From Bacillota bacterium (GTDB taxonomy: Bacteria; Bacillota; Limnochordia; Darwinibacteriales; Darwinibacteriaceae): a DNA stretch of 48,911 nucleotides. The stretch's first letter is position 1. Each line of letters starts with the position of its first letter. Positions 3,553 to 33,353 of this stretch are shown here, piece after piece. The position numbers were made by a program, and so were the translations under genes. Location of the stretch: assembly GCA_012521295.1 (NCBI GenBank), contig JAAYMS010000053.1:1-48911 (forward strand), read 5' to 3'. The notes under the pieces are model-generated. The model saw only the letters and a program-made list of their open reading frames with translations, was not told the DNA's origin and searched no databases.

Positions 3553-3580
3553 AAACTTGTTCTAGCCTGGAGGGAACGTC

Positions 3581-14296: not shown

Positions 14297-15457
14297 GTGA
14301 AAGACAAGCGAATGCTGCTCCCGATCTTATCCCTTGTGTTTGCTTTCGCTGTCATACCCACCGCGGCCGCTGCTCTGGATCTTGACGCCGCGGCAGCCCT
14401 GCTCATGGACGCCAGGTCTGGCCGCATCCTCTACGCCGAGAATATTGATACACCACTACCAGTAGCCAGCCTTACAAAAATGATGACACTGACTATTGCC
14501 CTAGAAGCCATTGACCGGGGAGAGTTTCAGCTGACCGATGTGATTACCGCCAGTCCTCACGCAGCTTCGAAGCGCGGCTCCCGGATCTGGTTGGAAGCCG
14601 GTGAACAGATGACTCTCAACGAGCTGCTCTATGCCATCGCAGTAGGTTCAGCTAACGATGCTGCCGTAGCCGTAGCCGAGTACATCGCTGGCTCCGAAGA
14701 TAGCTTTGTAGCCCTCATGAACCAGCGAGCTAGAGAGTTGGGCCTAGAGAACAGCTATTTTGCCAACTCCAGCGGCCTGCCCCTTGAGGACGGGACCGAA
14801 CATTCCATGACGGCTCGCGATGTGGCAAATCTTGCTAGGCATGCGCTCACCGTACCCCGTATGATGGAATACGTCTCAACCTACGAATACACCATGCGGC
14901 GCGACACCACAAGAATCCCTGTTTTGTGGAACAACAACAAACTCCTACGCCGCTACAGTGGCGTGGATGGTATCAAGACAGGATTCACAACTAAGGCGGG
15001 TTACTGTATTGCCGTTAGTGCAGTGCGTGATGGCCTGCGTTTGATTGGAGTAGTCTTAGGCAGCCCTAGTGAAGCGGCAAGAGAACAGGACGTTCGTACC
15101 CTCCTTGATTGGGGTTTTCGGCGGTATTACAACTATACAGCGGCAGAAAAAGGCACTGTACTGGGTGAACTGCAGATCTGGAACGGAAATCCCAGTTCGG
15201 TAGAAGTCGTTTTGGGTGAGCCATTTGCGGTCACCGTCGAACGGGGCCGGGAGGGAGAGCTGGAGCTCGAATCCGAGTTGTTCGCAGAGATACGCGCACC
15301 GCTGGCCGCACAGGCAATAGTGGGTACACTGACGGCCAAATTGGACGGCGAGATACTGGGAAGCGCCCCCCTGGTTGTAGGCGAAGCGGTGGAGCGCGCA
15401 GGATTTGCCGCTCTTGTAGGCCGCACGCTGAAATCAATGGCGGAAGCAGCTTTTTAG
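14297..15457 (+). CDS. dacF: D-alanyl-D-alanine carboxypeptidase (sporulation-type PBP5 family)
   Basis: Signal peptide, SxxK (ASLTKMMT), SxN (GSANDAA) and KTG (IKTGFT) motifs. Its position directly upstream of spoIIAA matches B. subtilis dacF. Confidence 0.85.
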   Translation: MKDKRMLLPILSLVFAFAVIPTAAAALDLDAAAALLMDARSGRILYAENIDTPLPVASLTKMMTLTIALEAIDRGEFQLTDVITASPHAASKRGSRIWLEAGEQMTLNELLYAIAVGSANDAAVAVAEYIAGSEDSFVALMNQRARELGLENSYFANSSGLPLEDGTEHSMTARDVANLARHALTVPRMMEYVSTYEYTMRRDTTRIPVLWNNNKLLRRYSGVDGIKTGFTTKAGYCIAVSAVRDGLRLIGVVLGSPSEAAREQDVRTLLDWGFRRYYNYTAAEKGTVLGELQIWNGNPSSVEVVLGEPFAVTVERGREGELELESELFAEIRAPLAAQAIVGTLTAKLDGEILGSAPLVVGEAVERAGFAALVGRTLKSMAEAAF

Positions 15458-15476
15458 ATGCTTCCGCGTTTTTTTG
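15440..15476 (+). terminator. Rho-independent terminator overlapping the dacF stop codon
   Basis: 9-bp stem gcggaagca / tgcttccgc, 10-nt loop containing the dacF TAG (15455-15457), then g + 7 T. Confidence 0.7.
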
Positions 15477-15486
15477 GAAAACAAGC

Positions 15487-15512
15487 AGGTAAAGTGTACA
15501 TTAGGCTCGAAA
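15487..15512 (+). promoter_or_regulatory. Possible sigma-H-type promoter for spoIIA operon
   Basis: AGGTAAA (15487-15493) and GAAA (15509-15512) resemble the sigma-H consensus RnAGGAwWW ... RnnGAAT, with about the right spacing. Each element has one mismatch. Confidence 0.25.
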
Positions 15513-15547
15513 GATTCAGTAAACTGTTGTTAAATGGAGGGAGAAAG

Positions 15548-15886
15548 GTGCAATTCAACATAACTGTGATTGGACAAGCCCTCATCGCCACGCTGGACGG
15601 CGATTTAGATCTACACACCTGCCCACAGTTTAAAGATGCCCTCACAAAGGCCCTCGACACGAACTCTAACGTCAAAAACTTAGTATTCGATGTGCAGAAC
15701 CTGACGTTCATAGACAGCTCGGGCCTCGGTGTAATCTTGGGGCGATATCGAGCTGTTCAGGCTCGGGGAGGCAAGCTCTTTTTTGTGAAAGCAAGCCCGC
15801 ATATGCAGCGAGTGTTGAAGCTGGCGGGTATGCACCGTATCTCAGAGTTTGTCGATTCTACAACAGAAGTCCTGAACCGAGCGTAG
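15548..15886 (+). CDS. spoIIAA: Anti-sigma-F factor antagonist SpoIIAA (STAS domain)
   Basis: STAS fold with the phosphorylatable Ser in FIDSSGLGV. GTG 15548 lies 6 nt after the RBS ggaggg. The ORF-track ATG 15458 lies inside the dacF terminator hairpin and is rejected. Confidence 0.9.
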   Translation: MQFNITVIGQALIATLDGDLDLHTCPQFKDALTKALDTNSNVKNLVFDVQNLTFIDSSGLGVILGRYRAVQARGGKLFFVKASPHMQRVLKLAGMHRISEFVDSTTEVLNRA

Positions 15887-15896
15887 GAGGGGAAAA

Positions 15897-16328
15897 ATGA
15901 TGAAAAACTGGATCGAATTAGTATTTCCCGGAACTTCGATTAATGTCAGTTTCGCTCGAGCTGTAGTTGCGCATTTCGCTGCTCAGCTTGACATTACCCT
16001 CGACGAGTTAGAGGACATTAAGGTTGCCGTATCAGAAGCGGTATCGAACTGTGTTGTCCATGGTTATCGGGAAAAAGAGGGCAACGTAGTAATTAGGGCG
16101 TCCTATGAAGAATCGCGCCTTGAAATTATAGTAGAAGATTTCGGACACGGTATCCCCGATATCGAAGTAGCGCAAGAAACAGGCTATACAACACTACCTG
16201 AAGAGCGGATGGGATTAGGGCTCACCTTCATGCGCGAGTACATGGATGAGCTGCATATTTACTCTGAAGTAGAAGTGGGAACCAAGGTGGTTATGGTTAA
16301 GCAGATTCCAGCGCGGCAAGCCGGGTGA
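15897..16328 (+). CDS. spoIIAB: Anti-sigma-F factor SpoIIAB (serine kinase, GHKL ATPase)
   Basis: SEAVSNCVVHGY (N-box), EDFGHGI (G1) and GLGLTFM (G2). 143 aa. Lies between spoIIAA and sigF. Confidence 0.9.
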   Translation: MMKNWIELVFPGTSINVSFARAVVAHFAAQLDITLDELEDIKVAVSEAVSNCVVHGYREKEGNVVIRASYEESRLEIIVEDFGHGIPDIEVAQETGYTTLPEERMGLGLTFMREYMDELHIYSEVEVGTKVVMVKQIPARQAG

Positions 16329-17050
16329 GAGATATGACCGGGCAACCATCGAAGGAAGAAACGCGCACATTGATCGGGCTGGCTCAAGCTGGTGACATGG
16401 AGGCCCGCTCGCAACTGGTCGAATCTAATCTCCCTCTGGTGGCCAGTATTGTTCGGCGCTTTCTCAGCCGCGGCTATGATTACGACGACCTGTTCCAGGT
16501 CGGATCGCTTGGGCTCTTAAAGGCGATACTTGATTTTGACCTCAGCTATGATGTACAGTTTTCTACGTATGCTGTACCGAAAATCATGGGCGAGATTAAA
16601 CGGTACATAAGAGAGGATGCACCGCTACACGTATCGCGTTCTCTCAAGGAATTAGCGGCCAAAGCCATCGCGGCTAAGGATCAGCTCGCCAGTGAGCTGG
16701 GGCGTAGCCCAACCATTTCAGAACTAGCACAGCATCTGGCAATATCTGTGGAAGAATTGGTTACCGCCCTTGATGCGGTTTCACCCGTCCATTCGCTGCA
16801 GGAAGTCGTGGCAGACAGTGACGATGAATCCGTCCACTTAGAGGACGTACTTCCAGCACCAGGTGGCGAAGGAAGATGGCAGCTTCGGACTGCCCTCGAA
16901 AGCCTAGATCCTTTCGAACGCCGCATCATTCTGCTGCGCTACTTCGCTGAGAAAAGTCAAACCGAAGTGGCTCAATCATTGGGTATTTCACAAGCTCAAG
17001 TCTCGCGCTTTGAAAAGCGAATTATTGCCCAACTGAGGCACCATCTCTAG
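16325..17050 (+). CDS. sigF: RNA polymerase sporulation sigma factor F
   Basis: Region 2 (DLFQVGSLGLLKAILDFD...FSTYAVPKIMGEIKRYIRE), region 3 and region 4 HTH (SQTEVAQSLGISQAQVSRFEKR). GTG overlaps the spoIIAB stop. ATG 16334 is an alternative start. Confidence 0.9.
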   Translation: MRDMTGQPSKEETRTLIGLAQAGDMEARSQLVESNLPLVASIVRRFLSRGYDYDDLFQVGSLGLLKAILDFDLSYDVQFSTYAVPKIMGEIKRYIREDAPLHVSRSLKELAAKAIAAKDQLASELGRSPTISELAQHLAISVEELVTALDAVSPVHSLQEVVADSDDESVHLEDVLPAPGGEGRWQLRTALESLDPFERRIILLRYFAEKSQTEVAQSLGISQAQVSRFEKRIIAQLRHHL

Positions 17051-18547: not shown

Positions 18548-18552
18548 CTTGG

Positions 18553-18573
18553 GCCGCCTAGTGCGGCTTTTTT
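18553..18573 (+). terminator. Weak candidate terminator after GNAT gene
   Basis: 5-bp GC stem gccgc / gcggc with a 4-nt loop, followed by tttttt. The stem is short. Confidence 0.35.
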
Positions 18574-18712
18574 CTTTTCTCCCCCTAAATCCCTAGCTTA
18601 ATAGGCGAAGTACTGTTGTAGTTTTCTCTCGACCTGCTCATGAAGGCAAGGATTATAGACAGATATGTCGAACTGAGAAGAAGCTGTATGTTTAGTCAAT
18701 GGAGGGGTATGA

Positions 18713-19327
18713 ATGCTAAACGTAATTGTTCTTGGTGGTCCGGTAATGATCCCGCTGCTGTTGTGCTCAGTGTTTGCCCTGGCTATTTCTATCGAGCGAC
18801 TGTGGTATCTTCTGCGCGGTAGAATTGACACGGAAGATTTGATGGAAGACATCCGCTTGGCTTTGGAACAGGGTAAAGTACTTGAGGCAATGCAGATTGC
18901 TAAGCGCAGCAGAGGGCCCGTTGCCGCCGTCCTCGCCGCAGGCATCGCTTACTATGATCGTGGCAAAGAAGAAATCCAGACCCATATGGAAGTTGTGGGT
19001 AGGGAAGAGATCTTCAAGATGGAGCGCCGCTTAAGTGCCCTGGATACCATCATCACGATTGCACCACTGCTTGGTATTCTGGGAACTGTTACTGGAATTA
19101 TTGATAGTTTTAATGTCTTGGCAGGCCTTGAAGGCGTATCAAATCATGCCCTGCTCGCGATGGGAATTGCTGAGGCGCTGATTACAACTGCGGCAGGTCT
19201 CATTATTGCCATCCCGGCTTCAGCAGTCTATTCTTATCTAAACACACTCATTGACCGGAACACCGCAGCAATGTCGAAGCATTCCACAGAGCTGCTGGCC
19301 CTTCTTAAGGGAAGTGGTGAAGAATGA
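18713..19327 (+). CDS. MotA/TolQ/ExbB-family proton channel
   Basis: Three TM segments. Signature APLLGILGTVTGII and EALITTAAGLIIAIP. RBS ggagggg upstream. 204 aa. Confidence 0.85.
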   Translation: MLNVIVLGGPVMIPLLLCSVFALAISIERLWYLLRGRIDTEDLMEDIRLALEQGKVLEAMQIAKRSRGPVAAVLAAGIAYYDRGKEEIQTHMEVVGREEIFKMERRLSALDTIITIAPLLGILGTVTGIIDSFNVLAGLEGVSNHALLAMGIAEALITTAAGLIIAIPASAVYSYLNTLIDRNTAAMSKHSTELLALLKGSGEE

Positions 19328-19731
19328 TTAGATTCGAGCGTCCGCGAAGAAAATCAAGTGGCCCGAACATCGTTCCACTGATCGACGTCATTTTCTTCCT
19401 GCTGATATTTTTTATGGTCTTCTATAATGTCAGCAGTACACCGTTGGGGATGGACGTAGAACTTCCGCAGGCGGTTACTGGAGCGCCCCAGAACGGACAG
19501 ACATTTGAGGTCAGTGTTCGGGCCGATGGAAGCTTTTATGTTGCAGGCCGCAAGGTAAGCGGCCCAGAACTGCGCGCTCAAGTGCAGCAGAGCTTGCTCA
19601 GCAATCCGGACCTGTTTGTCATTGTCAAAGCGGACAAGCAGGCCCGTTATGAACATGTTGTGAACTGTCTTGATCACATCAGAGCAGTTGGAGGTCACAA
19701 GCTGGGCCTAGCAGTTGAACAGAGCTCATAG
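19324..19731 (+). CDS. ExbD/TolR-family biopolymer transport protein
   Basis: Single N-terminal TM with the conserved Asp (NIVPLIDVIFFLLIFFMV) and a periplasmic-type domain (VIVKADKQARYEHVVNCLDHIRAVG). ATGA overlap with the preceding gene. Confidence 0.85.
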   Translation: MIRFERPRRKSSGPNIVPLIDVIFFLLIFFMVFYNVSSTPLGMDVELPQAVTGAPQNGQTFEVSVRADGSFYVAGRKVSGPELRAQVQQSLLSNPDLFVIVKADKQARYEHVVNCLDHIRAVGGHKLGLAVEQSS

Positions 19732-19749: not shown

Positions 19750-20772
19750 GTGATTAATCCTTATGGAGAAGAACAGCAATTCAACCGTTTTCTACTGATT
19801 TCCATTGTTCTCCATGCAATTGTCTTCCTCACCTATCCCCAATGGAGCTCACTCTTTGAGTCGGATCTTCCGAGTTCTGGTGATGGAGGGGTGATTCAGG
19901 TTTTCAGTGTACAGAGCACCGTTCCATCCCTGCCGAGCTCTGTCGTTGATCCTGTATCGCAGACGACACGGCCGCGGGTAACCGAGCCACGGCCGCAGCC
20001 CGATCAGCCGCCGGTGCAAAACGCTGTTGCACAGCCACTTCCGCCAGAAGTGCCCGAGCCAGCAGCACCGCAGCCCAGCCCGACACCCGATCCGGTAATG
20101 GAGGAGCCTACGATTCCAGAAAGGATAGCCGAATCTGAGATTCCCACTCCGGAAGTGCCAAAGCCAGCTGAGCCACAGGCCGAAAGTAGGGCAGCGGCAA
20201 CGGTGGGCGAAGGTAAACTGCTCACAAGCGAATCAGGGCCAGAAGTTGTCCTACCAGATAGCAGTCTTGGCAGTGAGGAAGTTATTCCTCCTACGCAGCC
20301 TCATCCCCAACCGCAGGAACTTCCTGCGAGCGAAGCTAACGTGGGAGCAAGCGGTTCGGGTACCGGTATTCAGGGGGAAGACGATAGTGCGGGTACCTCG
20401 CAATCGGGTACCGGCGAGGCAGATGCTGCACCGCCGCCACCGCCACCACCGCCTACAGGCAGGGTTATCGGTGCGGCAGCTGGCAATTTCAGGGTAAATT
20501 ATCCGAAGAATGCTGAACACTTAGGTGTGCAGGGAACCGTCCAGCTTCAGGCCCTCATCAGTGCATCTGGAGAAGTCTTAGATATCACCTTGGTACGTTC
20601 TTCGGGACACACACTCTTGGATACCCATGCAGGACTTGTTGCGGCGAACTATCCGTGGCCGTCGGATGTGGATGTTTACTGGGCGGAAGTCTTTGTCGAT
20701 TTTAGATACCAAGACGACCAGTTCAGTGCGGACATCCGCTTTGGCGAGACAGGCCGGGTAACTGCACCATAA
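19750..20772 (+). CDS. TonB-family energy transducer (TM anchor, long Pro/Glu-rich spacer, TonB C-terminal domain)
   Basis: N-terminal TM carrying an SxxxH motif (LISIVLHAIV). About 190 aa of P/E/Q/S-rich spacer, including the PPPPPPPP run. C-terminal YPKNAEHLGVQGTVQLQALISASGEVLDITLVRSSGHTLLD matches the TonB_C pattern. GTG start after RBS gaagggagg. Confidence 0.8.
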   Translation: MINPYGEEQQFNRFLLISIVLHAIVFLTYPQWSSLFESDLPSSGDGGVIQVFSVQSTVPSLPSSVVDPVSQTTRPRVTEPRPQPDQPPVQNAVAQPLPPEVPEPAAPQPSPTPDPVMEEPTIPERIAESEIPTPEVPKPAEPQAESRAAATVGEGKLLTSESGPEVVLPDSSLGSEEVIPPTQPHPQPQELPASEANVGASGSGTGIQGEDDSAGTSQSGTGEADAAPPPPPPPPTGRVIGAAAGNFRVNYPKNAEHLGVQGTVQLQALISASGEVLDITLVRSSGHTLLDTHAGLVAANYPWPSDVDVYWAEVFVDFRYQDDQFSADIRFGETGRVTAP

Positions 20773-20788
20773 GGAGGGCGTGGAAAAC

Positions 20789-22831
20789 ATGGGATACCAT
20801 AAACGATGCTGGTTCTTAGTCGTGTTGGCTGCTGTGCTGATCCTGCCCGCCGCTGCTCTGGGGCAGGAGACCGGGTTTATCCAAGTCGCCAACGAGTACA
20901 TCCGCATTATAGTCAATACGTCTGAACATAATATGGGTCGCTTTTCTGTGATGACTACGGGCGGCGACCCTGACCGCCTCGAAGATAATAATCAGCACCT
21001 TATCTACGGTGGAGAGAATCCGTGGACGTCCTATACCACAGTGCGTATCGGTAACGAAAACTGGGTATTCGGCGGTTCAACCAACCGCCGTGCGGGGCAG
21101 GGTGGAAAGTACGGCGAGATGGTTTTGCCGCCCACCGTTGAGGACAACGCAATTAAGAGTGTCTGGCGCCTAGGGCCCATCGAGGTAACCCAAATTCTCA
21201 GCTTTGCCCGCAGCACCACAACGGGGCTAATGGACACTGCACGAATCGAGTATCAGCTGCACAACGCGGACAGTGTCTCGCATATGGTCGGCCTAAGAAT
21301 CATGCTCGATACCATGTTAGGAACCAACGATGGTGCACCCTTCCGTGTGAATGAGCAAGCACTCTTGAGTGATACAGTCTTCTATGCAAATCAAATGCCG
21401 GAGTTTTGGCAGGCTTTTGACTCTCTAGCAAACCCTCGTGTTATGTCCCAAGGTACCCTACGGGGTAGAGGTGTCTCAACGCCTGATCGGGTCTATTTCA
21501 CCAACTGGGGCAGTGTGGCAGATGATCTCTGGAACTTCGACTTTACGCCTGGCCGGGATTTTACGCGTCGGGGTGAGTTCGAATTAGACAGTGCTATTGC
21601 CCTCTTCTGGGATTCAGCTCCACTAGGCCCTAATGAGACACGCAGCTACGTGGCCCACTACGGCTTAGGTGGCGTGACCATAGCAGCTGGTGAACTCGTC
21701 TTAGGCGTAACATCGCCGGCGCAGGTAACAGCAGATAGCGATCGCACCGAAACATTCTCCGTGATCGCATATGTTCAAAACGCTGGTTCAGGCGAGGCTC
21801 GTGACGTAATAGCTGAGATCGAGCTTCCTCAAGGGTTAGAGCTTGTGACAGGCAGCCGGACCCGCAGACTAGGTAACTTGGATGTCGGCGAAACACAGCA
21901 AACAGGCTGGCAGGTTGCAGCAACCGGAAGCATAAGTGGCGATCTGACCTACCGAGTTTCAGTACGTGCAATCAACAGCGAGCCCAACAGCGTCAGCCGG
22001 GCTGTGTCTATTGTCAGTCCCGCTCGCCTGCGGATATTCCGTCTCAGTGGGCCACCAGCGCTTTCTGTTGTAAACGAGCTTTACAACCCGTCGCCCTTTA
22101 CCATCGAAGCCTTGATTCGCAATGAGGGAGGTACCGCTGCGCACAACGTACATGCCAGTATACTCCATCCCATCGGCCTACTTCTCGCACCCGGTGAGCG
22201 CCGAGACAAGTTCGTGGGAACTATTGATGCAGGTGCTGAAGCACGCCTCACATGGTCGCTGGTTCCGACAGGTGTGTCTGGGAGCCTACCATATTCGGTA
22301 TCAATTCTGCACGGTGGAGAACCAGCACTCCAGAACAGCTTTATCTTTGTGCCGGAGCTGCGGCCTAAGGTATGGATTGGCGAACCAGAGACATATGGCC
22401 GCACACAGATCGCACCAGGAGACTACTTCTCCATCTCCGTTTGGGCTACAAATGTTGCCAACCTAGCACGGGCAGAGCTCGATCTATCTTTTAACCCAGA
22501 TGTGGTCGAACTGGTTGGTAAGACACTAGACATTACGCAGGGAACATTATTCCTCGATGATACTGTGACACCACCAGCAAAGCTTTCATGGACCATGCCT
22601 GTCGTTGATAACGCTGCCGGTACGGTGCAGGGTATACGAGGAGACCGAAGCCCCAGCAAGCCCTTAACGAGAGCCTACGGAACGCTAGTAACCCTTCATT
22701 TCCGGGCAAAAGGGCCGGGAGATGCTCAGATTACCCTTGACAATGTGCGTATTTTTGATGGCGTGAATCAACCTTGTGAATTTGAGTTAATCCCACAGCG
22801 CAGCGTTACTGTGATGCAGGCGGTAAAATGA
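20789..22831 (+). CDS. Secreted multidomain protein: unassigned ~290-aa N-domain, two Ig-like (CARDB-like) repeats, C-terminal cohesin-like domain
   Basis: Signal peptide MGYHKRCWFLVVLAAVLILPAAALGQ. Two clearly homologous ~90-aa repeats (nt ~21752-22021 and ~22094-22357). The C-terminus (GDYFSISVWATNVANLARAELDLSFNPDVVELV...GTLVTLHFRAKGPGDAQITLDNVRIFD) fits the cohesin pattern. ATG 20789 (10 nt after aaggaggg) is preferred to the track GTG 20780. Confidence 0.7.
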   Translation: MGYHKRCWFLVVLAAVLILPAAALGQETGFIQVANEYIRIIVNTSEHNMGRFSVMTTGGDPDRLEDNNQHLIYGGENPWTSYTTVRIGNENWVFGGSTNRRAGQGGKYGEMVLPPTVEDNAIKSVWRLGPIEVTQILSFARSTTTGLMDTARIEYQLHNADSVSHMVGLRIMLDTMLGTNDGAPFRVNEQALLSDTVFYANQMPEFWQAFDSLANPRVMSQGTLRGRGVSTPDRVYFTNWGSVADDLWNFDFTPGRDFTRRGEFELDSAIALFWDSAPLGPNETRSYVAHYGLGGVTIAAGELVLGVTSPAQVTADSDRTETFSVIAYVQNAGSGEARDVIAEIELPQGLELVTGSRTRRLGNLDVGETQQTGWQVAATGSISGDLTYRVSVRAINSEPNSVSRAVSIVSPARLRIFRLSGPPALSVVNELYNPSPFTIEALIRNEGGTAAHNVHASILHPIGLLLAPGERRDKFVGTIDAGAEARLTWSLVPTGVSGSLPYSVSILHGGEPALQNSFIFVPELRPKVWIGEPETYGRTQIAPGDYFSISVWATNVANLARAELDLSFNPDVVELVGKTLDITQGTLFLDDTVTPPAKLSWTMPVVDNAAGTVQGIRGDRSPSKPLTRAYGTLVTLHFRAKGPGDAQITLDNVRIFDGVNQPCEFELIPQRSVTVMQAVK

Positions 22832-22845
22832 AGGAGGCGGATTAT

Positions 22846-24150
22846 ATGAATAAGAGAGTAATGCTTGGCTTTGTTCTTGCTGTTCTGCTGTTCACATTAG
22901 GAGCAGCTCCTGTCGCAGCTAACTTAAGCGACGTGCCCAGTGATCATTGGGCGTATCACGCGGTGGTGACACTTGTCAACAAAGGGTACTTAGCCGTCTA
23001 CGAAGACGGTACGTTCCAGGGGTCCAGACCGGTAGACCGCTACACGCTGGCGGTAACCCTAGCCCGCATCCTGGATGATATTGAGGCCGGGCGAGTTCAG
23101 GGTTCGATGGAAGATCTGACCCTAATTCGAGAACTCACCACTGAGCTTACCGAAGAGCTCGTCGCATGGTACTCAGATCGGGCAGCTCTAGAAGACAAGG
23201 TAAGCAATGCCGAACGCATGCTTGTAATTACCGAGGATCGCTTGAACCGGGTTGTGACAGCGCAAACTCAGCTGCAGGACGAAGTAGCTGCGATTAAGAA
23301 TGAACTGATGCAGCAGATGCGTGAAGAAGCTGCACTGCTCGAAACAGCTACTGCAGAGCAGGCCACAACCCTAAGCGCGCAGCAGGCTTTACTGGCCCGC
23401 CAGGGCGAGATCATTGGCGAACACAGCGACGTGCTGTCCGAGCATGAAATGCGCATCAACGAGCAGATGGCGCAACTACGGGAGCAGCAGGTACGCCTCG
23501 GTGAGCTTATGACAGCTCTGATGGAGATCGAGAATAGTCTCATGACACACAAGGCAGACATCAATGCTCTGCAGAACTGGGCCGGAGAGAAGAGTGCTGT
23601 ACTGGCTGCCCTACAGCATCAAGATGCGGCACTCAATGAAGAGGTTGCTCAGATTAGAACGGAACTGGCCAGCCTGACACAGGAGACTGATGAACGATTA
23701 AGTGAGCTTTCTGCTATGGTATCTGAATCTGATGCAGAGCACGAAAACACCGCGGCTCAAATCGCTGCGCTGCAAGCCCGCTCCGTTGAGATCGAAAAGG
23801 ATCTGCAGAACCTGGCCGTACTGCTCCAGCGCGAGACACAGCGTCGTGGCGAAATGAGCACAGCTATTGACCAAATTCGTGCTGAAATGGCATCCTTAGA
23901 AACACAGATCGGCCTCTCAGAGGAAGAAATGGCTTCGCTGCGCTCGCAGATCAGCGATCAGGTCCGTCTCGAGATGAATGCTGCCCTAATCCGAGAGCAG
24001 CGTCTCGAGCGGCAGATAGACGAGCTTCAAGAAGAGTTTGCGAACTACAAACAGACAACCGAAGCTCAGCTGAAATCCAACAAGACTATGGCCACTATCG
24101 GTATTGTGGTGGGAGCCATTGGTGTCGTTGTGGGGTTGATAAATAAATAG
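22846..24150 (+). CDS. SLH-domain / long coiled-coil / C-terminal TM protein (Omp-alpha-like envelope tether)
   Basis: Signal peptide MNKRVMLGFVLAVLLFTLGAAPVAA. One SLH motif (SDVPSDHWAYHAVVTLVNKGYLAVYEDGTFQGSRPVDRYTLAVTLARIL). About 300 residues rich in E/Q/L/A heptad-like sequence. C-terminal hydrophobic MATIGIVVGAIGVVVGLINK. ATG 22846 follows RBS aaggagg, and the track ATG 22828 overlaps that RBS. Confidence 0.75.
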   Translation: MNKRVMLGFVLAVLLFTLGAAPVAANLSDVPSDHWAYHAVVTLVNKGYLAVYEDGTFQGSRPVDRYTLAVTLARILDDIEAGRVQGSMEDLTLIRELTTELTEELVAWYSDRAALEDKVSNAERMLVITEDRLNRVVTAQTQLQDEVAAIKNELMQQMREEAALLETATAEQATTLSAQQALLARQGEIIGEHSDVLSEHEMRINEQMAQLREQQVRLGELMTALMEIENSLMTHKADINALQNWAGEKSAVLAALQHQDAALNEEVAQIRTELASLTQETDERLSELSAMVSESDAEHENTAAQIAALQARSVEIEKDLQNLAVLLQRETQRRGEMSTAIDQIRAEMASLETQIGLSEEEMASLRSQISDQVRLEMNAALIREQRLERQIDELQEEFANYKQTTEAQLKSNKTMATIGIVVGAIGVVVGLINK

Positions 24151-24187: not shown

Positions 24188-24218
24188 GAGACAGCCTGCG
24201 GGCTGTCTCTTTTTGTTT
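24188..24218 (+). terminator. Rho-independent terminator ending the exbB-to-SLH unit
   Basis: Perfect 9-bp stem gagacagcc / ggctgtctc, tgcg loop, then tttttgttt. Confidence 0.8.
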
Positions 24219-24220
24219 GG

Positions 24221-24250
24221 GCATAAACAGCCTCCTGCAAAGCTATACTA
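24221..24250 (+). promoter_or_regulatory. Candidate forespore (sigma-G/sigma-F type) promoter of spoVA operon
   Basis: GCATA (24221-24225), 18 nt, TATACTA (24244-24250). This resembles the sigma-G consensus GnATR ... CATnnTA with one mismatch. It lies ~29 nt upstream of the spoVAC ATG. Confidence 0.45.
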
Positions 24251-24279
24251 ATGACAGCTTTAACTGGGAGGCAGCGTAC

Positions 24280-24720
24280 ATGAAACCACAAGAGTACCAG
24301 CAGCTGGTAAGAGAAAACCAACCACCAAGGAGAACCTGGAGAAATGTTATCCTGGCATTCGTGGTGGGTGGTAGTTTCTCGCTTATAGGGCAGATCGTTC
24401 TTGATTTCGTCAGCGGCGTGGAAAGAACCACTGACGAGGCTTCGGCAATTACCCTGGCCATCATGATCCTTATAGGTGCGGTGCTGACGGGGTTGGGTAT
24501 CTATGACGAAATTGCCGAGATTGGTGGAGCGGGCGCCGCAGTCCCCATCACTGGCTTTTCGAACACTGTTACTGCAGCAGCCATGGAGTTTCGCCGCGAA
24601 GGTTTTATTCTTGGTATGGGTGCCAAGATGTTTGTGATCGCGGGCCCTGTCTTGGTCTACGGCATCTTGTCTGGATTTTTGGTTGCACTGATCAAATCAG
24701 TAGTACTGGGGTATTTCTAA
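24280..24720 (+). CDS. spoVAC: Stage V sporulation protein AC
   Basis: Four-TM protein with AGAAVPITGFSN and GPVLVYGI patterns. ATG 24280 follows RBS gggagg. The track TTG 24217 would include the terminator tail and promoter. Confidence 0.9.
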   Translation: MKPQEYQQLVRENQPPRRTWRNVILAFVVGGSFSLIGQIVLDFVSGVERTTDEASAITLAIMILIGAVLTGLGIYDEIAEIGGAGAAVPITGFSNTVTAAAMEFRREGFILGMGAKMFVIAGPVLVYGILSGFLVALIKSVVLGYF

Positions 24721-24733
24721 GGGGGGAAGCAGA

Positions 24734-25741
24734 TTGGCTACCAGAAGGGTGGGAGGCCAGACCATTTTCTTCGAAGACCTACCCAAGTTGGTGTCTGCCC
24801 ACACTATCGTCGGGAAAAACGAGGGGCAGGGGCCATACAGCGAATACTTCGATGAAATCCTCGAGGACGATTTATTGGGACAACCCACCGCAGAAAAGGC
24901 TGAACGCCAGATTCTACAACAAGCAGTCGAGCAAGCTCTCAGCAAGTACGGACTGGTTCCCCAAGATATTCAGTACTACGTCAGCGGAGATCTCCTGAAT
25001 CAAGTGATTTCAGCGGTCTTCAGTGCCCGCAACCTGGCGATTCCATTTCTGGGCATCTTCAGCGCCTGCGGTACTTTCGCTCAGAGCTTAGGGCTGGGAA
25101 GCATACTACTTCACGGAGGATTCGCCAGCAAAGTCTTGGTTGCTACTTCGAGCCACTACCAAACAGCAGAGCGCCAATACCGCTATCCGATAGAATTGAA
25201 CATCCAGCATCGGCCGACGAACCAGCACACTGTGACAGGAGCGGGGGCCTGCGTTTTATCGGCCGATGGAGAAGGCCCAAAGATCACACACGTTACCTTT
25301 GGCAGGATTGTCGATATGGGCCTCAAGGACCCAAATGATATGGGTAGTGCCATGGCTCCTGCTGCCTTCGATACACTTGAGAAGCATCTGAAGGACATAG
25401 AGTGTTCCCCTGATCACTACGACTTGATCCTAACCGGCGACCTGGGGCGGCAGGGCTTTAAGATGCTGAAGATTATCGCAGAGAAGAAGGGGCTGGCGCT
25501 GGGCACTAACCTGCAGGATGGGGGAGTTCTCATTTACGGCGAAGATCCTAAGTACGGTGCAGGGGCGAGCGGTGCAGCATGTTCAGCGGTCATGACGCTC
25601 GGCTATGGACTCTCTTTACTAAGAGAAGGAAAAATCCGGAGACTTCTCTTAGTTGGTACTGGTGCCCTCCTAAACCAACTAACTGTACAACAAGGTGACT
25701 CAATACCTACCATTGCGCACGCAGTTGCTATCGAGGCGTAA
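24734..25741 (+). CDS. spoVAD: Stage V sporulation protein AD (thiolase-like fold)
   Basis: 335 aa with SGDLLNQ, FLGIFSACGT and TGAGA patterns. Lies between spoVAC and spoVAE. Confidence 0.9.
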   Translation: MATRRVGGQTIFFEDLPKLVSAHTIVGKNEGQGPYSEYFDEILEDDLLGQPTAEKAERQILQQAVEQALSKYGLVPQDIQYYVSGDLLNQVISAVFSARNLAIPFLGIFSACGTFAQSLGLGSILLHGGFASKVLVATSSHYQTAERQYRYPIELNIQHRPTNQHTVTGAGACVLSADGEGPKITHVTFGRIVDMGLKDPNDMGSAMAPAAFDTLEKHLKDIECSPDHYDLILTGDLGRQGFKMLKIIAEKKGLALGTNLQDGGVLIYGEDPKYGAGASGAACSAVMTLGYGLSLLREGKIRRLLLVGTGALLNQLTVQQGDSIPTIAHAVAIEA

Positions 25742-25762
25742 GGAGCGAATAGAGGTGATGCC

Positions 25763-26113
25763 ATGCAGTACCTGATTGCCTTTGTCGTTGGAGGACTGAT
25801 CTGTGCAGCAGCTCAACTAGTCCTAGAGTATACCAAGCTGGCTCCAGTGCATGTACTGGTAGGGTTAACTGTCTTAGGCGCCATTTCTGCAGGAATCGGG
25901 ATTTATGAACCCTTTTTGCAGTTCGCAGGAGCGGGTGCGCTGGTCCCAGTGAGCGGGTTCGGCAGCTCTATCACACGAGGGATGCTTTCGGAAATAAAGC
26001 GGCTCGGATGGGAAGGATTATTTACAGGAGCTTTTGAGATAACGGGCCTCGGACTTGCAGCAGCAGTAGTTTTCGGCAGCTTAATGGCTATCGCGTCAAG
26101 GCCTCGCGATTGA
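25763..26113 (+). CDS. spoVAE: Stage V sporulation protein AE (AEB-type)
   Basis: 116-aa membrane protein, paralogous to SpoVAC (AGAGALVPVSGFGSSI). Confidence 0.9.
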   Translation: MQYLIAFVVGGLICAAAQLVLEYTKLAPVHVLVGLTVLGAISAGIGIYEPFLQFAGAGALVPVSGFGSSITRGMLSEIKRLGWEGLFTGAFEITGLGLAAAVVFGSLMAIASRPRD

Positions 26114-26140
26114 CCCCAGGACGATACTGGGGTCTTTTTT
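26112..26140 (+). terminator. Rho-independent terminator after spoVAE
   Basis: 8-bp stem gaccccag / ctggggtc, 7-nt loop, then tttttt. The stem begins within the TGA stop. Confidence 0.75.
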
Positions 26141-28791: not shown

Positions 28792-30792
28792 TTGGATACT
28801 AGTGAATTCAAAGAGATTTTCGCAGCTGAAGCACGAGATTATCTCCAATCGCTCAATGACGATCTTTTGCGGCTGGAAAACGATCCTAGCAACAGCGATA
28901 TCTTAGATGAGATGTTTCGTGCGGCCCACAGCTTAAAAGGCATGGCAGGCACAATGGGGTTCCGAGAGCTGGCAGAGTTTACCCATGAGATGGAGAGTGT
29001 CTTCGACCTCCTCCGCACCGGTTCCCTCACTGCAACTCAGGAAGTTGTAGACGTGCTTTTCCAAGCTGTGGATACCCTCGAGCTGCTCCTCGAAGCAACC
29101 ATTGATGGTTCACCCATTGCTTATCACGAACAGATAACTCAGCGCCTGCGCTCATTAACAAGTGCTCCGCCAACACCGTCATCCTCTCGAAGCGTTGGCG
29201 AACTTGACGCGGGGTTTAAGCTGAACGAGTTTGACCGCGAGACCATCAAGCAGGGTAAGGAACAGGGGCTCAATGCCTATGCAGCCGAAGTATCATTGCG
29301 GCCGAACACTCTACTCAAATCGGTGCGGGTTTTTACAGTCTTTCAAGCACTAGAGAATATCGGGACGATCGTCAAGAGCGATCCTCCAGCACAAGATCTT
29401 GAGGAGGAACGATTTGATCTTGATTTTTCTCTCCTCATTCTGACGAGGGAAAGTGCTCAAACAGTGCAGCAAGTTATTGAGGGAATCTCTGAGATCGATG
29501 CCGTTAAGGTATACTCCATCAACCTCGAGCAAACACCAACTCCCAATATAGAAGCTGCCGCGGCGCAGGAAGAACTCCAGGTAGAGTTTCCTACAGGAGA
29601 AGGTTCACAGTTGGTGAAAACTACCCAGTTCCAACAGCGCAGTGGCGACAAATATGTCCGTATCGAGACGGAGCGATTGGATAAACTGATCAATTTGGTC
29701 GGCGAGTTGGTGATCAGCCGCACGCAGGTTATTGAGATCATGCGTGATGTGGTTGACACAGAGCAGAAAAGCGCAGCCGATCAGCTTGACCGCGTCACAA
29801 CTGAACTGCAGCATGCAGCTATGAGCCTAAGAATGGTCCCGATTAAACAGGTTTTTGACCGGTTCCCGCGTATGGTAAGGGACTTGGCACGGGCCAGCCA
29901 GAAAGAGATTAACCTCGAAATCTATGGCGAAGATACGGAACTCGACCGTTCGCTCGTCAATCAAATAGGCGACCCTCTTGTGCACCTCATCCGCAACTCG
30001 ATCGACCACGGTATCGAACCAAGGGATGTGCGCATCGCAAGGGGCAAACCAACTGCAGGAACGGTCCGGGTTGGCGCGCGTCACGAAGGTAGTCACATTG
30101 TCATTGCGGTGGAAGATGACGGTGGCGGGCTCAATGTGGAGAAGATTCGAGCCAAAGCGATCGAACGAGGACTGCTTCCCAGCGACGTTGGAGAGATTTC
30201 AAAGCAGACCGCTATAGACCTTCTGTTCCAGCCTGGATTCAGTACCGCCAGTGTTGTTACCGATATCTCTGGCCGAGGCGTGGGCATGGATGCCGTTAAG
30301 TCTGTAATCGAGTCTATGAGTGGAACAATTGAAATAGAAACTGAACCGGAAAAGTATCTCCGGACTGTGATCAAACTGCCATTGACCCTTGCAATCATTA
30401 AGGCTCTCTTGGTTGTAGCCGATGGGGCAACCTACGCAATTCCAATCCAAGCGGTTCGAGAGAACCTTCAGATTACACGTGATCAGATTAAGACCGTGCA
30501 GCAGCACGATGTAATTGTACTGCGAGACGAGATATTGCCCCTGTACGACCTGGCTGAATGTCTTGGCTTTACACCATTACAGCCAGAACAAGATGAGAGT
30601 CTGTCGGTTATTGTGATGGAGACACGGGGTCAGAAGGCGGCCTTTATTGTAGAAGACCTAATTGGCCAGCAGGAGATTGTAATCAAGAGTCTCGGCGACT
30701 TAATTGGTGAAGTAAAAGGAATCGCCGGTGCCGCTGTCTTAGGAAACGGCCAGGTCGCCCTAATATTAGATAACAGCACCTTACTAAGATAG
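28792..30792 (+). CDS. cheA: Chemotaxis histidine kinase CheA
   Basis: Hpt with the phospho-His (FRAAHSLKGMAGTMGF), dimerisation domain, HATPase (DDGGGL, GRGVGMD) and a C-terminal CheW-like domain. TTG start. Confidence 0.95.
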   Translation: MDTSEFKEIFAAEARDYLQSLNDDLLRLENDPSNSDILDEMFRAAHSLKGMAGTMGFRELAEFTHEMESVFDLLRTGSLTATQEVVDVLFQAVDTLELLLEATIDGSPIAYHEQITQRLRSLTSAPPTPSSSRSVGELDAGFKLNEFDRETIKQGKEQGLNAYAAEVSLRPNTLLKSVRVFTVFQALENIGTIVKSDPPAQDLEEERFDLDFSLLILTRESAQTVQQVIEGISEIDAVKVYSINLEQTPTPNIEAAAAQEELQVEFPTGEGSQLVKTTQFQQRSGDKYVRIETERLDKLINLVGELVISRTQVIEIMRDVVDTEQKSAADQLDRVTTELQHAAMSLRMVPIKQVFDRFPRMVRDLARASQKEINLEIYGEDTELDRSLVNQIGDPLVHLIRNSIDHGIEPRDVRIARGKPTAGTVRVGARHEGSHIVIAVEDDGGGLNVEKIRAKAIERGLLPSDVGEISKQTAIDLLFQPGFSTASVVTDISGRGVGMDAVKSVIESMSGTIEIETEPEKYLRTVIKLPLTLAIIKALLVVADGATYAIPIQAVRENLQITRDQIKTVQQHDVIVLRDEILPLYDLAECLGFTPLQPEQDESLSVIVMETRGQKAAFIVEDLIGQQEIVIKSLGDLIGEVKGIAGAAVLGNGQVALILDNSTLLR

Positions 30793-30805
30793 GAGATGAT
30801 GTGGC

Positions 30806-31168
30806 ATGCCAAAGACCGTACTCATTACAGACGACACAGCCTTCATGCGCATGACGCTGAAAAATGTAATCCAAAAGAATGGATACATCGTCGTGGGCGA
30901 AGCAGCAGATGGTGAAGAGGCCGTCGCTAAGTACCTAGAACTCCGCCCCGACTTGGTAACTATGGATATCACCATGCCGAAAATGGATGGAATTACAGCC
31001 ATTAAAGAAATCATGCGCCACGATCCTAATGCCAGAATCATTGTGTGCAGCGCCATGGGGCAAAAACCGATGGTTATCGAAGCTCTGAATGCAGGAGCAA
31101 AGGACTTTTTGGTGAAGCCATTTGACGCTGATCGTGTCATCGAAGCACTGCGCAAAGCTGCTCCGTAG
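30806..31168 (+). CDS. cheY: Chemotaxis response regulator CheY
   Basis: 120-aa single receiver domain with DD, the phospho-Asp in VTMDITMP, and K in VKPF. Confidence 0.9.
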   Translation: MPKTVLITDDTAFMRMTLKNVIQKNGYIVVGEAADGEEAVAKYLELRPDLVTMDITMPKMDGITAIKEIMRHDPNARIIVCSAMGQKPMVIEALNAGAKDFLVKPFDADRVIEALRKAAP

Positions 31169-31179
31169 GAGGAGGCTGA

Positions 31180-31776
31180 ATGGAACGACTAGACTTCTTG
31201 CGCGAACTAGGGAACATCGGAATTGGGCACGCAACTACAGCTCTGTCTGAAATGCTGCAGGGCAAGCTTCTGCGCCTTGTGGTTCCGGATGCCCGTATAC
31301 TCCCATTCGAAGAAGCGGCTGCCTATATCGGTGGCCTAGACGAAATCGTGGCCGGCATCTTTATGCAGATATCAGGTGACGTTACTGGTCACATGGCATT
31401 TATACTCCCGATCGAAAGCGCCCGCACACTAGTGGAATTGCTGACTCAACGGCATGGGACTGACGAAGAGATATTTGATGAATTAGGCCGCTCCGCACTG
31501 GAAGAAATCGGGAATATTATGATTACTTCTTATCTTAACGCTCTCAGCGCCTTAACAGATCTTGTCATGTCCCCAAGTATCCCAGCCCTCGCGATCGACA
31601 TGGCAGGAGCCGTTTGGGAAAGCGTGCTTGCAGGGGCTCTGGTTGATGAAGCGGTGACGATTATCCGGACTGATTTCTCTGCCGATGGCGTGGATATCGG
31701 GGGCAATATTGTGCTGCTTCCCGATGAAGAGGAGTTCCAGAAGATTGAGCATGCCCTCGGCCTGGAGGATTTCTGA
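31180..31776 (+). CDS. cheC: CheY-P phosphatase CheC
   Basis: Two CheC motifs (LRELGNIGIGHATTALSEML and ALEEIGNIMITSYLNALS). Lies adjacent to cheD. Confidence 0.85.
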   Translation: MERLDFLRELGNIGIGHATTALSEMLQGKLLRLVVPDARILPFEEAAAYIGGLDEIVAGIFMQISGDVTGHMAFILPIESARTLVELLTQRHGTDEEIFDELGRSALEEIGNIMITSYLNALSALTDLVMSPSIPALAIDMAGAVWESVLAGALVDEAVTIIRTDFSADGVDIGGNIVLLPDEEEFQKIEHALGLEDF

Positions 31777-32258
31777 TGGAAGAGGTCTTTGTCAATATGG
31801 GAGAGATCCGGGCTCTAGCGAGAACGGGTGTCTTAACAACAGTTGGCCTGGGTTCGTGTGTGGGAGTAGCTCTGTACGATAGCGTAGCTCAAGTGGGAGT
31901 AATGGGGCATGTATTCTTGCCGACGGCCCGCCGGCGGAACGAGACGGTGGATATGCCGGGGAAGTATGCAGACACCGCTATCCCGGCGCTGATCGATGAA
32001 GCGGTCAGGTTGGGCGCTCAGAAGCGCCGCCTATGGGCAAAACTTGCTGGCGGTGCCAATCTGTTTCCTAACCTCACGACGAGTAATGGAAACATCGGCA
32101 GTCAGAACATTAAAGCTGTACTGGAAAACTTGGCGTTACACGATATACCGGTCGTTGGTCAGGATGTGTCAGGCAGTCATGGACGTAAGATGCGTTTTTT
32201 TGTCGAAGACGGCCGCGTTACAGTAACGGCTATTGGTAAAGAACCAATTGATATTTGA
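31776..32258 (+). CDS. cheD: Chemoreceptor glutamine deamidase CheD
   Basis: TVGLGSCVGVALYD (catalytic Cys) and GHVFLP. Start overlaps the cheC stop. Confidence 0.9.
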   Translation: MEEVFVNMGEIRALARTGVLTTVGLGSCVGVALYDSVAQVGVMGHVFLPTARRRNETVDMPGKYADTAIPALIDEAVRLGAQKRRLWAKLAGGANLFPNLTTSNGNIGSQNIKAVLENLALHDIPVVGQDVSGSHGRKMRFFVEDGRVTVTAIGKEPIDI

Positions 32259-32268
32259 GGTGGTCGCG

Positions 32269-33339
32269 ATGTCCATCCGAGTATTAGTAGTTGATGACAG
32301 CGCATTTATGCGAAAGATGATTACGCAGATATTGACGTCCGACCCCGGTATCGAAGTAACCGCAACCGCCCGGAATGGAGCGGATGCTCTAAAAAAACTC
32401 ACTTCAACCGAGGTCGATGTCATCACCTTAGACGTTGAGATGCCAGTCATGAACGGGCTGGATACACTGCGTGAGTTGATGGCTGTAAACCCCAAACCAG
32501 TCATCATGCTGAGCAGCAGAACGAAACGAGGATCCGAGATTACATTCCAGGCCCTCGCTCTAGGTGCCGTAGATTTCGTTCCCAAGCCTTCGGGTGAGAT
32601 TTCTCTAGATATTGACACTATCGCACAAGAACTAATTGCAAAAGTAAAGGCTGCAGCTGGTGCTCGTGTTGTTGCGTATAAATCGTCTCCCCAACCCGAG
32701 AAGACAGTTACACCACCCCCTCCGCGAAAGCCGGTTCAAACGACAGTACCTCGTGGTATCGCGGCTGATGCAGTCGTTATCATAGGTTCGTCCACCGGCG
32801 GGCCCAAAGCACTAGAGCAGGTTATAGCCAGCATCCCAAAAGACATTCCCGCTGGCTTTCTTATTGTTCAACACATGCCGCAACCATTTACTAAGAGCTT
32901 TGCTGAACGCTTGAATGGTATCGGCGAACTGGCTGTTAAAGAAGCCGAAGAGGGAGATGTGGTCCAGAACGGTATGGCGCTGTTAGCTCCAGGATCGTTC
33001 CATATGGTTGTGGATCAAGATAAACGCATACGTCTAAATCAGGATCCACCGGTGCAGTTCGTGCGCCCCAGCATTGATGTCACGATGGCAAGCCTTCCAG
33101 AAGTATTTGGATCGAGAATTGTAGGAGTGATTCTCACAGGAATGGGCCGTGATGGAGCCGATGGCATGGGCTTGATTAAAAAGGCCGGTGGGTTGACTAT
33201 CGCGCAAGACCGCCTGACATCGACAATTTACAGCATGCCCAAGGCGGTCGCGGATGAAGGTCATGCTGACTATATCCTCTCACTCGATCGCATTGGGGAA
33301 AGCATCATTCGCTTGGTTCATGCCATACAGAGTCACTAA
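32269..33339 (+). CDS. cheB: Protein-glutamate methylesterase/deamidase CheB
   Basis: Receiver domain (IRVLVVDDSAFMR...LDVEMPVMNG) plus methylesterase domain (GSSTGGP, QHMP, GMGRDGA). ATG 32269 follows RBS gaggtgg. The track start 32233 overlaps cheD. Confidence 0.9.
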   Translation: MSIRVLVVDDSAFMRKMITQILTSDPGIEVTATARNGADALKKLTSTEVDVITLDVEMPVMNGLDTLRELMAVNPKPVIMLSSRTKRGSEITFQALALGAVDFVPKPSGEISLDIDTIAQELIAKVKAAAGARVVAYKSSPQPEKTVTPPPPRKPVQTTVPRGIAADAVVIIGSSTGGPKALEQVIASIPKDIPAGFLIVQHMPQPFTKSFAERLNGIGELAVKEAEEGDVVQNGMALLAPGSFHMVVDQDKRIRLNQDPPVQFVRPSIDVTMASLPEVFGSRIVGVILTGMGRDGADGMGLIKKAGGLTIAQDRLTSTIYSMPKAVADEGHADYILSLDRIGESIIRLVHAIQSH

Positions 33340-33353
33340 AGGGGTTATTAGCC

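Follow-up and report, generated by a model that had tools for sequence, protein, structure and literature searches.

Why would an apparently spore-forming member of the Bacillota encode, downstream of a Ton-type motor, a protein with one wall-binding motif at its N-terminus, a long coiled coil and a hydrophobic helix at its very end? The question is raised by the gene at 22846-24150 (+) of contig JAAYMS010000053.1 (assembly GCA_012521295.1), whose whole length of 48,911 nucleotides we analysed and refer to as the window. We suggest that the product is an Ompα-type connector between the wall and the outer membrane of a diderm Firmicute, and that it is the distal partner of the motor system encoded with it; we put the probability of this reading at roughly one half. 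The Ompα architecture is known. New here are an Ompα-like tether in another phylum-level setting and its conserved genetic partnership.

Architecture of the protein and its family

The gene and the parts of its product, read outward from the signal peptide, are as follows.

22846-24150 (+): gene of the protein with S-layer homology (SLH) motif, rod and helix, stop codon included; 434-residue precursor; 95 homologues with the same architecture
22846-22920 (+): Sec signal peptide, residues 1-25, read from the sequence; helix 3-19 in the AlphaFold2 model; kept in all family members
22921-23091 (+): single SLH motif, residues ~26-82 (DVPSDHWAY...FQG...VDRYT), by Pfam and SlpA/OmpM matches
23110-24084 (+): coiled-coil rod, residues 89-413, by heptad contrast, register assignment, AlphaFold2 helices, indel steps and alignment motifs
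24085-24141 (+): C-terminal hydrophobic helix TMATIGIVVGAIGVVVGLI, residues 414-432; uncharged 19-residue core with a glycine zipper, tail NK

The surrounding open reading frame (ORF) extends from 22828 to 24150 (+), and the ATG at 22846 is almost certainly the true start, because a GGAGG ribosome-binding site lies 7 nucleotides before it and gene callers yield the same 434 residues; the coordinates of the initial annotation of this locus were correct. The signal peptide has a positive start, a hydrophobic core and V-A-A preceding the cut site between MNKRVMLGFVLAVLLFTLGAAPVAA and NLSDVP, and no lipobox cysteine is read in this region; the mature protein has 409 residues and 45.6 kDa. The single SLH motif that had been read behind it exceeds the Pfam gathering score (PF00395, 22.9 against 20.8 bits). 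When PDB sequences were searched with phmmer, residues 19-122 aligned with the SLH domain and early stalk of Deinococcus radiodurans SlpA (7zgx, E 7e-13) and matched Veillonella OmpM (8bys/8bym/8bz2, E about 1e-8). In a family alignment of 38 sequences W35, G59 and R65 are invariant, and Y37 and Y66 occur in at least 90% of sequences; these are the equivalents of the ligand-contacting W34, G58 and R64, plus Y36 and Y65, of VpOmpM1 (PMC10628300). The residues equivalent to SLH ligand contacts are retained, invariant or nearly so.

The rod, first described as about 300 heptad-rich residues spanning roughly 45 nm, measures 325 residues, or ~48 nm at 0.1485 nm per residue. Proline is absent over 321 residues (85-405), and the rod is composed of 15% E, 13% A, 13% L and 10% Q. 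Its local hydrophobic contrast at heptad positions a and d is 0.435, against 0.261±0.024 in shuffled sequences (z = 7.2), and a heptad register can be assigned over more than 95% of its length with few stutters. The AlphaFold2 monomer, with the family alignment as input, places helices at 89-294 and 302-433, the predicted local distance difference test (pLDDT) score being ~90 at residues 100-240. Among homologues, the spacing of anchor residues differs by 3, 4 or 7 residues, and in the first variable segment of the rod remainders of 2, 3 and 6 do not occur when the inter-anchor distance is divided by 7; steps of 3, 4 and 7 are what a constraint on a coiled-coil core would predict. Apart from noise, a Foldseek search of the PDB with the rod model matched nothing but the SLH domain of OmpM1 (E 0.013), as is to be expected of so long a helix. 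The rod is not generic coiled-coil filler, because it contains conserved motifs. The alignment keeps ENWAGEK (residues ~243-249), ELEKDLQNLAVLLQRETQ (~312-331) and the membrane-adjacent NAALIREQRLERQIDELQEEF (378-398), followed by KSNK; the consensus of the 38 sequences reads ENWAGEK, ELEKDLQNLAV.LQRETQ, G.SEEEL and, close to the membrane, NAALIREQRLERQI.ELEEEF..Y....KS.K, and the conserved motifs may also be given as ENWAGEK, LEKDLQNLAV and NAALIREQRLERQ.

The protein ends in KSNK-TMATIGIVVGAIGVVVGLI-NK, closing with ...GLINK. The 20-residue hydrophobic helix with few trailing residues that had been noticed there is a 19-residue core that shows a GxxxGxxGxxxG pattern and is followed by a 2-residue tail. 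Across 59 distinct proteins, K or R precedes the hydrophobic core in 54, neither follows it in 44, and the mean tail is 1 residue. An Ompα-type protein of Thermosipho has the same flank pattern: a K/R cluster stands ahead of the helix, and the uncharged tail after it is very short. The hydrophobic cores of Halanaerobium members are only 15 residues long. The K/R before the core, the tail of about one residue and the 15-residue Halanaerobium cores agree with Ompα and are at odds with a stop-transfer anchor, which indirectly supports anchoring in the outer membrane.

A sequence search returned 95 homologues of 334-529 residues, all from metagenome-assembled Bacillota and the named ones from Limnochordia; all the complete ones share the layout of signal peptide, SLH motif, rod and helix. 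Since it is conserved in 95 homologues, the architecture is not a chance property of a single ORF, and each of its elements is confirmed as far as sequence and structure prediction reach. The family is larger still: a HMMER search with the N-terminal 130 residues against 1.84 billion representatives produced 1245 matches (E up to 1e-10). The best 150 included 140 newly returned proteins, and ~80 of these 140 have a single SLH motif and a C-terminal hydrophobic helix, with lengths of 172-1480 residues. Named members carry the labels "hypothetical", "S-layer homology domain-containing" or, wrongly, "chromosome segregation ATPase". Rod lengths across the family run from about 100 to more than 700 residues, and long single-SLH proteins with a C-terminal helix include P0298 (1480 residues), P0268 (1003), P0245 (903) and the proteins of loci L051 and L052 (about 800).

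Linkage to a Ton/Tol-type motor

The gene is the fifth and last of a tightly packed operon, with intergenic gaps of 18, 7 and 14 nucleotides and one overlap, which two hairpins bracket.

18551-18569 (+): terminator-like hairpin closing the upstream GNAT transcription unit
18648-18673 (+): SigH-type promoter-like motif AAGGATTATAGACAGATATGTCGAAC, AGGA-N17-GAAC, conserved upstream of the operon
18713-19327 (+): first operon gene, TolQ/ExbB-like proton-channel subunit, 204 residues; Pfam MotA_ExbB, E 8e-30
19324-19731 (+): TolR/ExbD-like subunit, 135 residues; Pfam ExbD, E 1e-28; its start overlaps the preceding stop
19750-20772 (+): TonB/TolA-like force transducer, 340 residues; Pfam TonB_C, E 1e-10; NCBIfam tonB_Cterm; weak tolA_full
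20780-22831 (+): X683, a conserved secreted all-β protein of 680-683 residues; weak Pfam NPCBM_assoc, Cohesin and CARDB
24188-24209 (+): strong terminator-like hairpin of 9 pairs with a T-run, 38 nucleotides past the stop codon; operon end

The initial annotation had called a position downstream of a Ton motor unusual; in our survey this linkage is not incidental and is the defining context of the family. One genome per GTDB species was scanned with the family alignment, the window proteins were compared with the resulting loci by tblastn, and SLH ORFs were extracted. The tally covers SLH proteins of Limnochordia and Halanaerobiales with enough upstream sequence and counts those with X683 directly upstream: 57 of the 60 helix-type proteins, whose C-terminus is a hydrophobic helix, and none of the 6 OmpM-like SLH proteins of barrel type, whose last residue is F or W (Fisher p = 9e-7). 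The genes of the ExbB-like, ExbD-like and TonB-like proteins, X683 and the SLH protein cluster throughout Limnochordia-type metagenome-assembled genomes (MAGs) and also in Halanaerobiales, where Halanaerobium kushneri ATCC 700103 is a cultured carrier. In H. kushneri the neighbours differ, a two-component system standing upstream and a SleB-like hydrolase gene and gyrA downstream; linkage to spoVA is lost both in distant Limnochordia loci and in Halanaerobiales, and the five-gene cluster is retained. The Thermosipho protein (391 residues) shares the architecture, and its locus lacks the motor cluster. Paralogues outside the operon exist: in the MAG JBNJEB01 (loci L068 and L074) the pair of X683 and SLH-helix genes is present twice, and in Clostridia bacterium DTU065 (L071) a 273-residue SLH-helix protein has no cluster in the 8 kb preceding its gene. 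The contig JBLNCC010000096.1 (L032), which bears the label "Betaproteobacteria bacterium MAG135", carries a Bacillota-type cluster with a 423-residue SLH-helix protein whose C-terminus is nearly identical to those of L030, L031 and L038; this MAG is probably mis-binned or mislabelled.

The motor itself is clear at the level of families and less so at the level of subtype. The Pfam matches for ExbB, ExbD and TonB_C all exceed their gathering scores. With NCBIfam models the first subunit scores 107.6 bits for tolQ against 71.5 for exbB, and the second 73.7 for tolR against 57 for ExbD, the tolQ and tolR cut-offs (221 and 127) being unmet; the TolQ/TolR models outscore ExbB/ExbD in the Halanaerobium kushneri pair too (L066, 3746-4790). 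The TonB/TolA-like protein has an N-terminal membrane helix with S18xxxH22, the numbering of E. coli TolA, then a Pro-rich linker and the TonB_C domain.

X683 comprises an N-terminal domain of 265 residues (30-295), two Ig-like domains and a C-terminal cohesin-like domain, and its AlphaFold2 model is all-β (mean pLDDT 87). No other product of the operon is as conserved: X683 has more than 543 homologues at 45-80% identity and surpasses the rod in this respect. Foldseek returned only generic multi-Ig architectures for it (integrin α legs, PrgB) and no functional match for the N-terminal domain. That domain contains many invariant residues, in GRFSVGTTGGDPDR, DTMLG.NDGAPF, FTNWGS and GEFELDSA and has no Pfam or PDB assignment. 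Homologues of X683 are named "cellulosome anchor protein" in databases. We reject that name, which rests on a sub-threshold cohesin match (22.9 against 24.1 bits) and goes with no dockerin partner.

A motif AGGA-N17-GAA(C/T/A) lies 64-95 nucleotides before the start of the ExbB-like gene in 30 of 49 orthologous loci, where shuffled sequences give a mean of 0.13; its consensus is GCAAGGAT-N13-TGTCGAA, over loci L002-L047, two Halanaerobiales MAGs included. This fits the SigH-type pattern of Firmicutes, with -35 AGGA, a 17-18-nucleotide spacer and -10 GAAT (PMC12456013), and not that of sigma-70 or extracytoplasmic-function (ECF) factors; an ECF-type reading was rejected for its mismatch in spacing.

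The Pfam scan of the window covered 37 of 41 main plus-strand ORFs, those at 28792-34124 lying outside it, and no TonB-dependent receptor was found among these 37, nor among the neighbours of the cluster in those loci that were read. Halothermothrix orenii was described as having ExbB/ExbD/TonB with no detectable TonB-dependent receptor, and "a different function" was suggested (PMC2626281). According to a 2025 survey, receptor-containing Ton systems occur among Firmicutes only in Negativicutes, and Tol-Pal only in Gracilicutes (PMC12204202). A full-text literature search found no paper tying this motor to an SLH-rod protein.

Tether, ruler or inner-membrane anchor

The domain order of the protein had been compared with that of Thermotoga maritima Ompα, and the likeness is borne out, size included. 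Both have a signal peptide, one N-terminal SLH motif, a long coiled coil (316 residues in Ompα, 325 here) and a hydrophobic C-terminus, of about 20 residues in Ompα; the mature mass is 45.3 kDa in T. maritima against 45.6 kDa here (PMC3387000), and the rod of Ompα-type tethers is mostly α-helical (over 75%), as is the one here, with helix predicted for residues 89-433 except 7. Ompα, which combines an SLH motif, a 45-50-nm coiled coil and a C-terminal helix, has been reported from Thermotogae, Bipolaricaulota and Fraserbacteria (PMC3387000, PMC10160955, PMC9388160, 10.1101/2021.05.31.446380); it co-purifies with the toga and corresponds to periplasmic fibres of ~50 nm (PMC3387000, PMC10160955, PMC9388160). 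By BLASTP our protein matches the Thermosipho Ompα-type protein over 70 residues of SLH (49% identity, E 2e-19). The differences are also plain: no Ompβ-type β-barrel gene is adjacent here, the neighbours being X683 and spoVAC, although Ompα-Ompβ adjacency is poorly conserved even in Thermotogae (PMC10160955); the host belongs to the Bacillota; the TolQR/TonB-like operon is absent at the Thermosipho locus; the length range is extreme; and the host lineages here also have OmpM-type tethers, which Thermotogae lack.

With OmpM and SlpA (OmpM1 8bys/8bym/8bz2; Deinococcus SlpA 7zgx) the protein shares a homologous SLH domain and stalk start (E 1e-8 to 7e-13) and the same ligand-contact residues, and a trimer would be expected; its N-terminus also matches NCBIfam por_somb at E 3e-11, below the cut-off. 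Unlike them, it has no C-terminal β-barrel with an aromatic end and is all-helical to ...GLINK, its rod is many times the length of a Negativicutes-type stalk, and barrel-type genes were absent from the motor cluster in all six cases. The literature on tethers of diderm Firmicutes discusses only OmpM (PMC10628300, PMC5007114, PMC13018214). The operon in turn resembles Tol-Pal in its order, with a channel pair, an SxxxH/TonB_C-type transducer, a large secreted β-protein and a peptidoglycan-binding membrane-anchored protein, and in that its motor subunits score higher with TolQ/TolR than with ExbB/ExbD models, all below equivalog cut-offs. It differs in that X683 is a β-sandwich chain and not a TolB β-propeller, and in that its wall binder is an SLH motif with coiled coil and helix without a lipobox, not an OmpA-like lipoprotein such as Pal. 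The clustered ExbB/ExbD/TonB_C family domains recall a Ton system, from which the locus differs by having no TonB-dependent receptor gene in the scanned ORFs or the cluster.

We picture the connector as follows. After Sec export and cleavage of the signal peptide, three chains would assemble, and their three single SLH motifs would form one SLH module binding a peptidoglycan-associated ligand, either a pyruvylated polymer or polyaminated peptidoglycan. The chains would run on as a parallel coiled coil of ~48 nm, and their three glycine-zipper helices would form a bundle embedded in the outer membrane from its inner face. The rod would act as the wall- and outer-membrane-side partner of the motor system, not as a stand-alone strut; we propose this partnership because the rod is encoded at the end of a five-gene operon that has a SigH-type motif and also encodes the motor, the transducer and X683. 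That the rod is probably trimeric we infer, reasonably in our opinion, from its single-SLH relatives OmpM and SlpA, and insertion into the outer membrane and physical coupling to the motor are likewise inferred.

Several observations weigh against this reading. A Sec-exported protein with a hydrophobic C-terminal helix resides by default in the cytoplasmic membrane, and no known pathway carries such a helix to the outer membrane. The AlphaFold2 monomer has a predicted TM-score of 0.27 with a single low-confidence break at 295-301, and the composition of the a/d core does not discriminate a dimer from a trimer. BLASTP finds no homology to the Thermosipho protein beyond the SLH motif, the rods aligning at E 0.18 or worse, and rod sequences are also highly divergent among Thermotogae themselves (PMC10160955). 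Rod proteins of cluster-linked orthologues have 185-800 residues, and up to 1480 among metagenome representatives. Within one MAG the rod has about 117 residues against about 45 for the OmpM-type stalk, and within the genus Halanaerobium about 143 against about 76; rods thus exceed OmpM stalks 2-2.5-fold in a comparison of one MAG pair and one genus pair, confined to these because a search for Limnochordia OmpM with the N-terminal 130 residues yielded only 7 fragments. Correlation with the length of the TonB-like protein (mostly 280-390 residues, range 211-456), tested as a prediction of a shared periplasmic span, was absent (r = 0.12).

Given how widely rod length varies, and given the lack of correlation and the disagreement with OmpM stalks, a rigid ruler at right angles to the membrane is improbable as a general rule, and the earlier idea that the protein sets or senses a distance is weakened and lacks support in the form given. 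If the longest members were continuous coiled coils they would exceed 100-200 nm, beyond any perpendicular periplasmic spacer. It is possible that rods are tilted, flexible or laterally arranged, or that the anchor lies in the inner membrane. A passive ruler that, independently of the motor genes, alone fixes the distance from wall to outer membrane at about 45-50 nm, as has been suggested for Thermotoga, its neighbourhood being mere inherited synteny, seems improbable to us. Its rod of 325 residues and ~48 nm does nearly equal that of T. maritima Ompα (PMC3387000), and Limnochordia synteny reaches past the five genes to the PHP-domain and GNAT genes and the sigF operon upstream. The five-gene cluster, however, is kept in Halanaerobiales amid different neighbours, tightly packed and terminator-bounded, and its association with helix-type proteins (57/60 against 0/6) and the range of protein lengths, together with the OmpM stalk mismatch, speak for more than synteny and a fixed span.

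An anchor of type I in the cytoplasmic membrane is the rival that we take most seriously, unlikely as we consider it. The helix would be a stop-transfer segment, the rod would rise from the inner membrane, and the SLH tip would bind peptidoglycan from below. The protein would then serve either as a stator-like anchor that fastens the motor complex of the inner membrane to the wall or as a spacer between that membrane and the wall. This is the default Sec outcome, and for Limnochordia members the best 19-residue window gives an additive Hessa-scale sum of about 0 or less; it would also account for co-expression with ExbB/ExbD/TonB and dissolve the conflict between rod and OmpM stalk lengths. 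The flanking charges, with K/R ahead of the helix and none after it in most members, are however the reverse of those of an N-out/C-in anchor, the Halanaerobium cores are short for an inner-membrane span, and rods of 20-100 nm misfit the gap between inner membrane and wall too. Ompα, the only characterised protein of such architecture, is in the toga fraction (PMC10160955, PMC3387000). Much less probable is a role specific to sporulation or germination, in which the protein, expressed only in sporulation, would connect a spore membrane with the cortex or the germ-cell wall. The Limnochordia operon does lie between dacF-spoIIAA-spoIIAB-sigF and spoVAC-AD-AEb, its promoter-like motif is of SigH type, and in H. 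kushneri a SleB-like hydrolase gene follows it. We rejected sporulation as the main explanation on the ground that the spoVA linkage is lost while the five-gene cluster persists; moreover, Halanaerobium species are not known to form spores. The regulons of SigH are broad, with an enrichment of division and envelope genes in Sporomusa, a diderm Firmicute (PMC12456013). Least credible of all is a cellulosome-type surface display in which the SLH protein would anchor a cohesin-bearing X683 on the wall. The weak Cohesin match and the source names of X683 homologues point that way; against it, the match is sub-threshold, the cluster has no dockerin-bearing partner and always has a Ton/Tol-type motor, and the most conserved part of X683 is its N-terminal domain of unknown function. 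Single-SLH proteins of diderms with an N-terminal SLH motif face the periplasm (PMC10628300).

The connector reading can be carried one step further, with more reserve. The five-gene module may be a hitherto unrecognised envelope system, driven by the proton-motive force, that takes the place of Tol-Pal in diderm Firmicutes; we regard this as conceivable but on balance doubtful. The motor, through the TonB-like arm and X683, would then act on or reposition the Ompα-like connectors; this could serve to stabilise or constrict the outer membrane at division, or to deliver the helix-anchored rod to the outer membrane.

Host, genomic setting and significance

The nearest relatives of the host are MAGs labelled Limnochordia, Firmicutes or "Peptococcaceae bacterium", and all named carriers of the cluster are diderm Firmicute lineages or unclassified Bacillota MAGs. 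Limnochordia is one of three diderm lineages of Firmicutes (10.1101/2021.05.31.446380), and the host, an uncultured bacterium, is most likely a diderm Firmicute of this spore-forming, two-membraned lineage. The initial annotation found such a protein unusual in a spore-former. A periplasmic SLH tether is not anomalous here, because the relatives are diderm Limnochordia and Halanaerobiales, in which tethers from wall to outer membrane are to be expected (10.1101/2021.05.31.446380).

The window reads as core chromosome, with genes in this order.

Window start: pnp, phosphotransacylase/kinase genes, 2-oxoacid:ferredoxin oxidoreductase, xerD, deoB, pdp
Window middle: dacF, spoIIAA, spoIIAB, sigF, PHP-domain gene, GNAT gene, then the five-gene operon
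After the operon: spoVAC, spoVAD, spoVAEb, cheW, fliM and fliY-like genes
Window end: FapA-domain gene, mutS, mutL, miaA

At the place of 28792-34124 the syntenic locus L002 has cheA-cheY-cheC-cheD-cheB-cheR. The operon and, with it, the PHP and GNAT genes lie between the dacF-spoIIAA-spoIIAB-sigF block (14297-17050) and the spoVAC-AD-AEb block (24217-26113), of which the latter has its own terminator at 26112-26134. In Bacillus subtilis these two blocks are adjacent, and the envelope operon looks like an insertion within an ancestral sporulation gene neighbourhood. Elsewhere in the window, a 390-residue ORF without a Pfam match (8340-9512, +) follows the gene of a DUF3866 protein (7274-8356, +). 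At 1725-4651 (+) two ORFs of the acetate/butyrate-kinase family (314 and 356 residues), both matching only part of the Pfam model, stand around a phosphate acetyl/butyryl transferase gene, which could be a duplicated or split kinase arrangement.

Diderm Terrabacteria have no Lpp, Pal or Tol-Pal, and OmpM is the sole tether so far recognised in them. The way in which these bacteria hold on to their outer membrane while growing and dividing matters for the debate over the transition from diderm to monoderm cells. The family described here extends helix-anchored rods of the Ompα type beyond Thermotogae and their neighbours, as a large and un- or mis-annotated family of diderm Firmicutes, almost invariably encoded with a Ton/Tol-type motor that lacks a known client in those lineages. 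It offers a concrete candidate, open to genetic tests, for an energised system that tethers the outer membrane of Terrabacteria, and a possible role for a motor noted as unexplained ever since the genome of H. orenii was published in 2009. If the Tol-Pal-like view is true, it would explain the "orphan" ExbB/ExbD/TonB genes of receptor-less Halanaerobiales and Limnochordia, and Terrabacteria would possess an energised tethering machine of their own.

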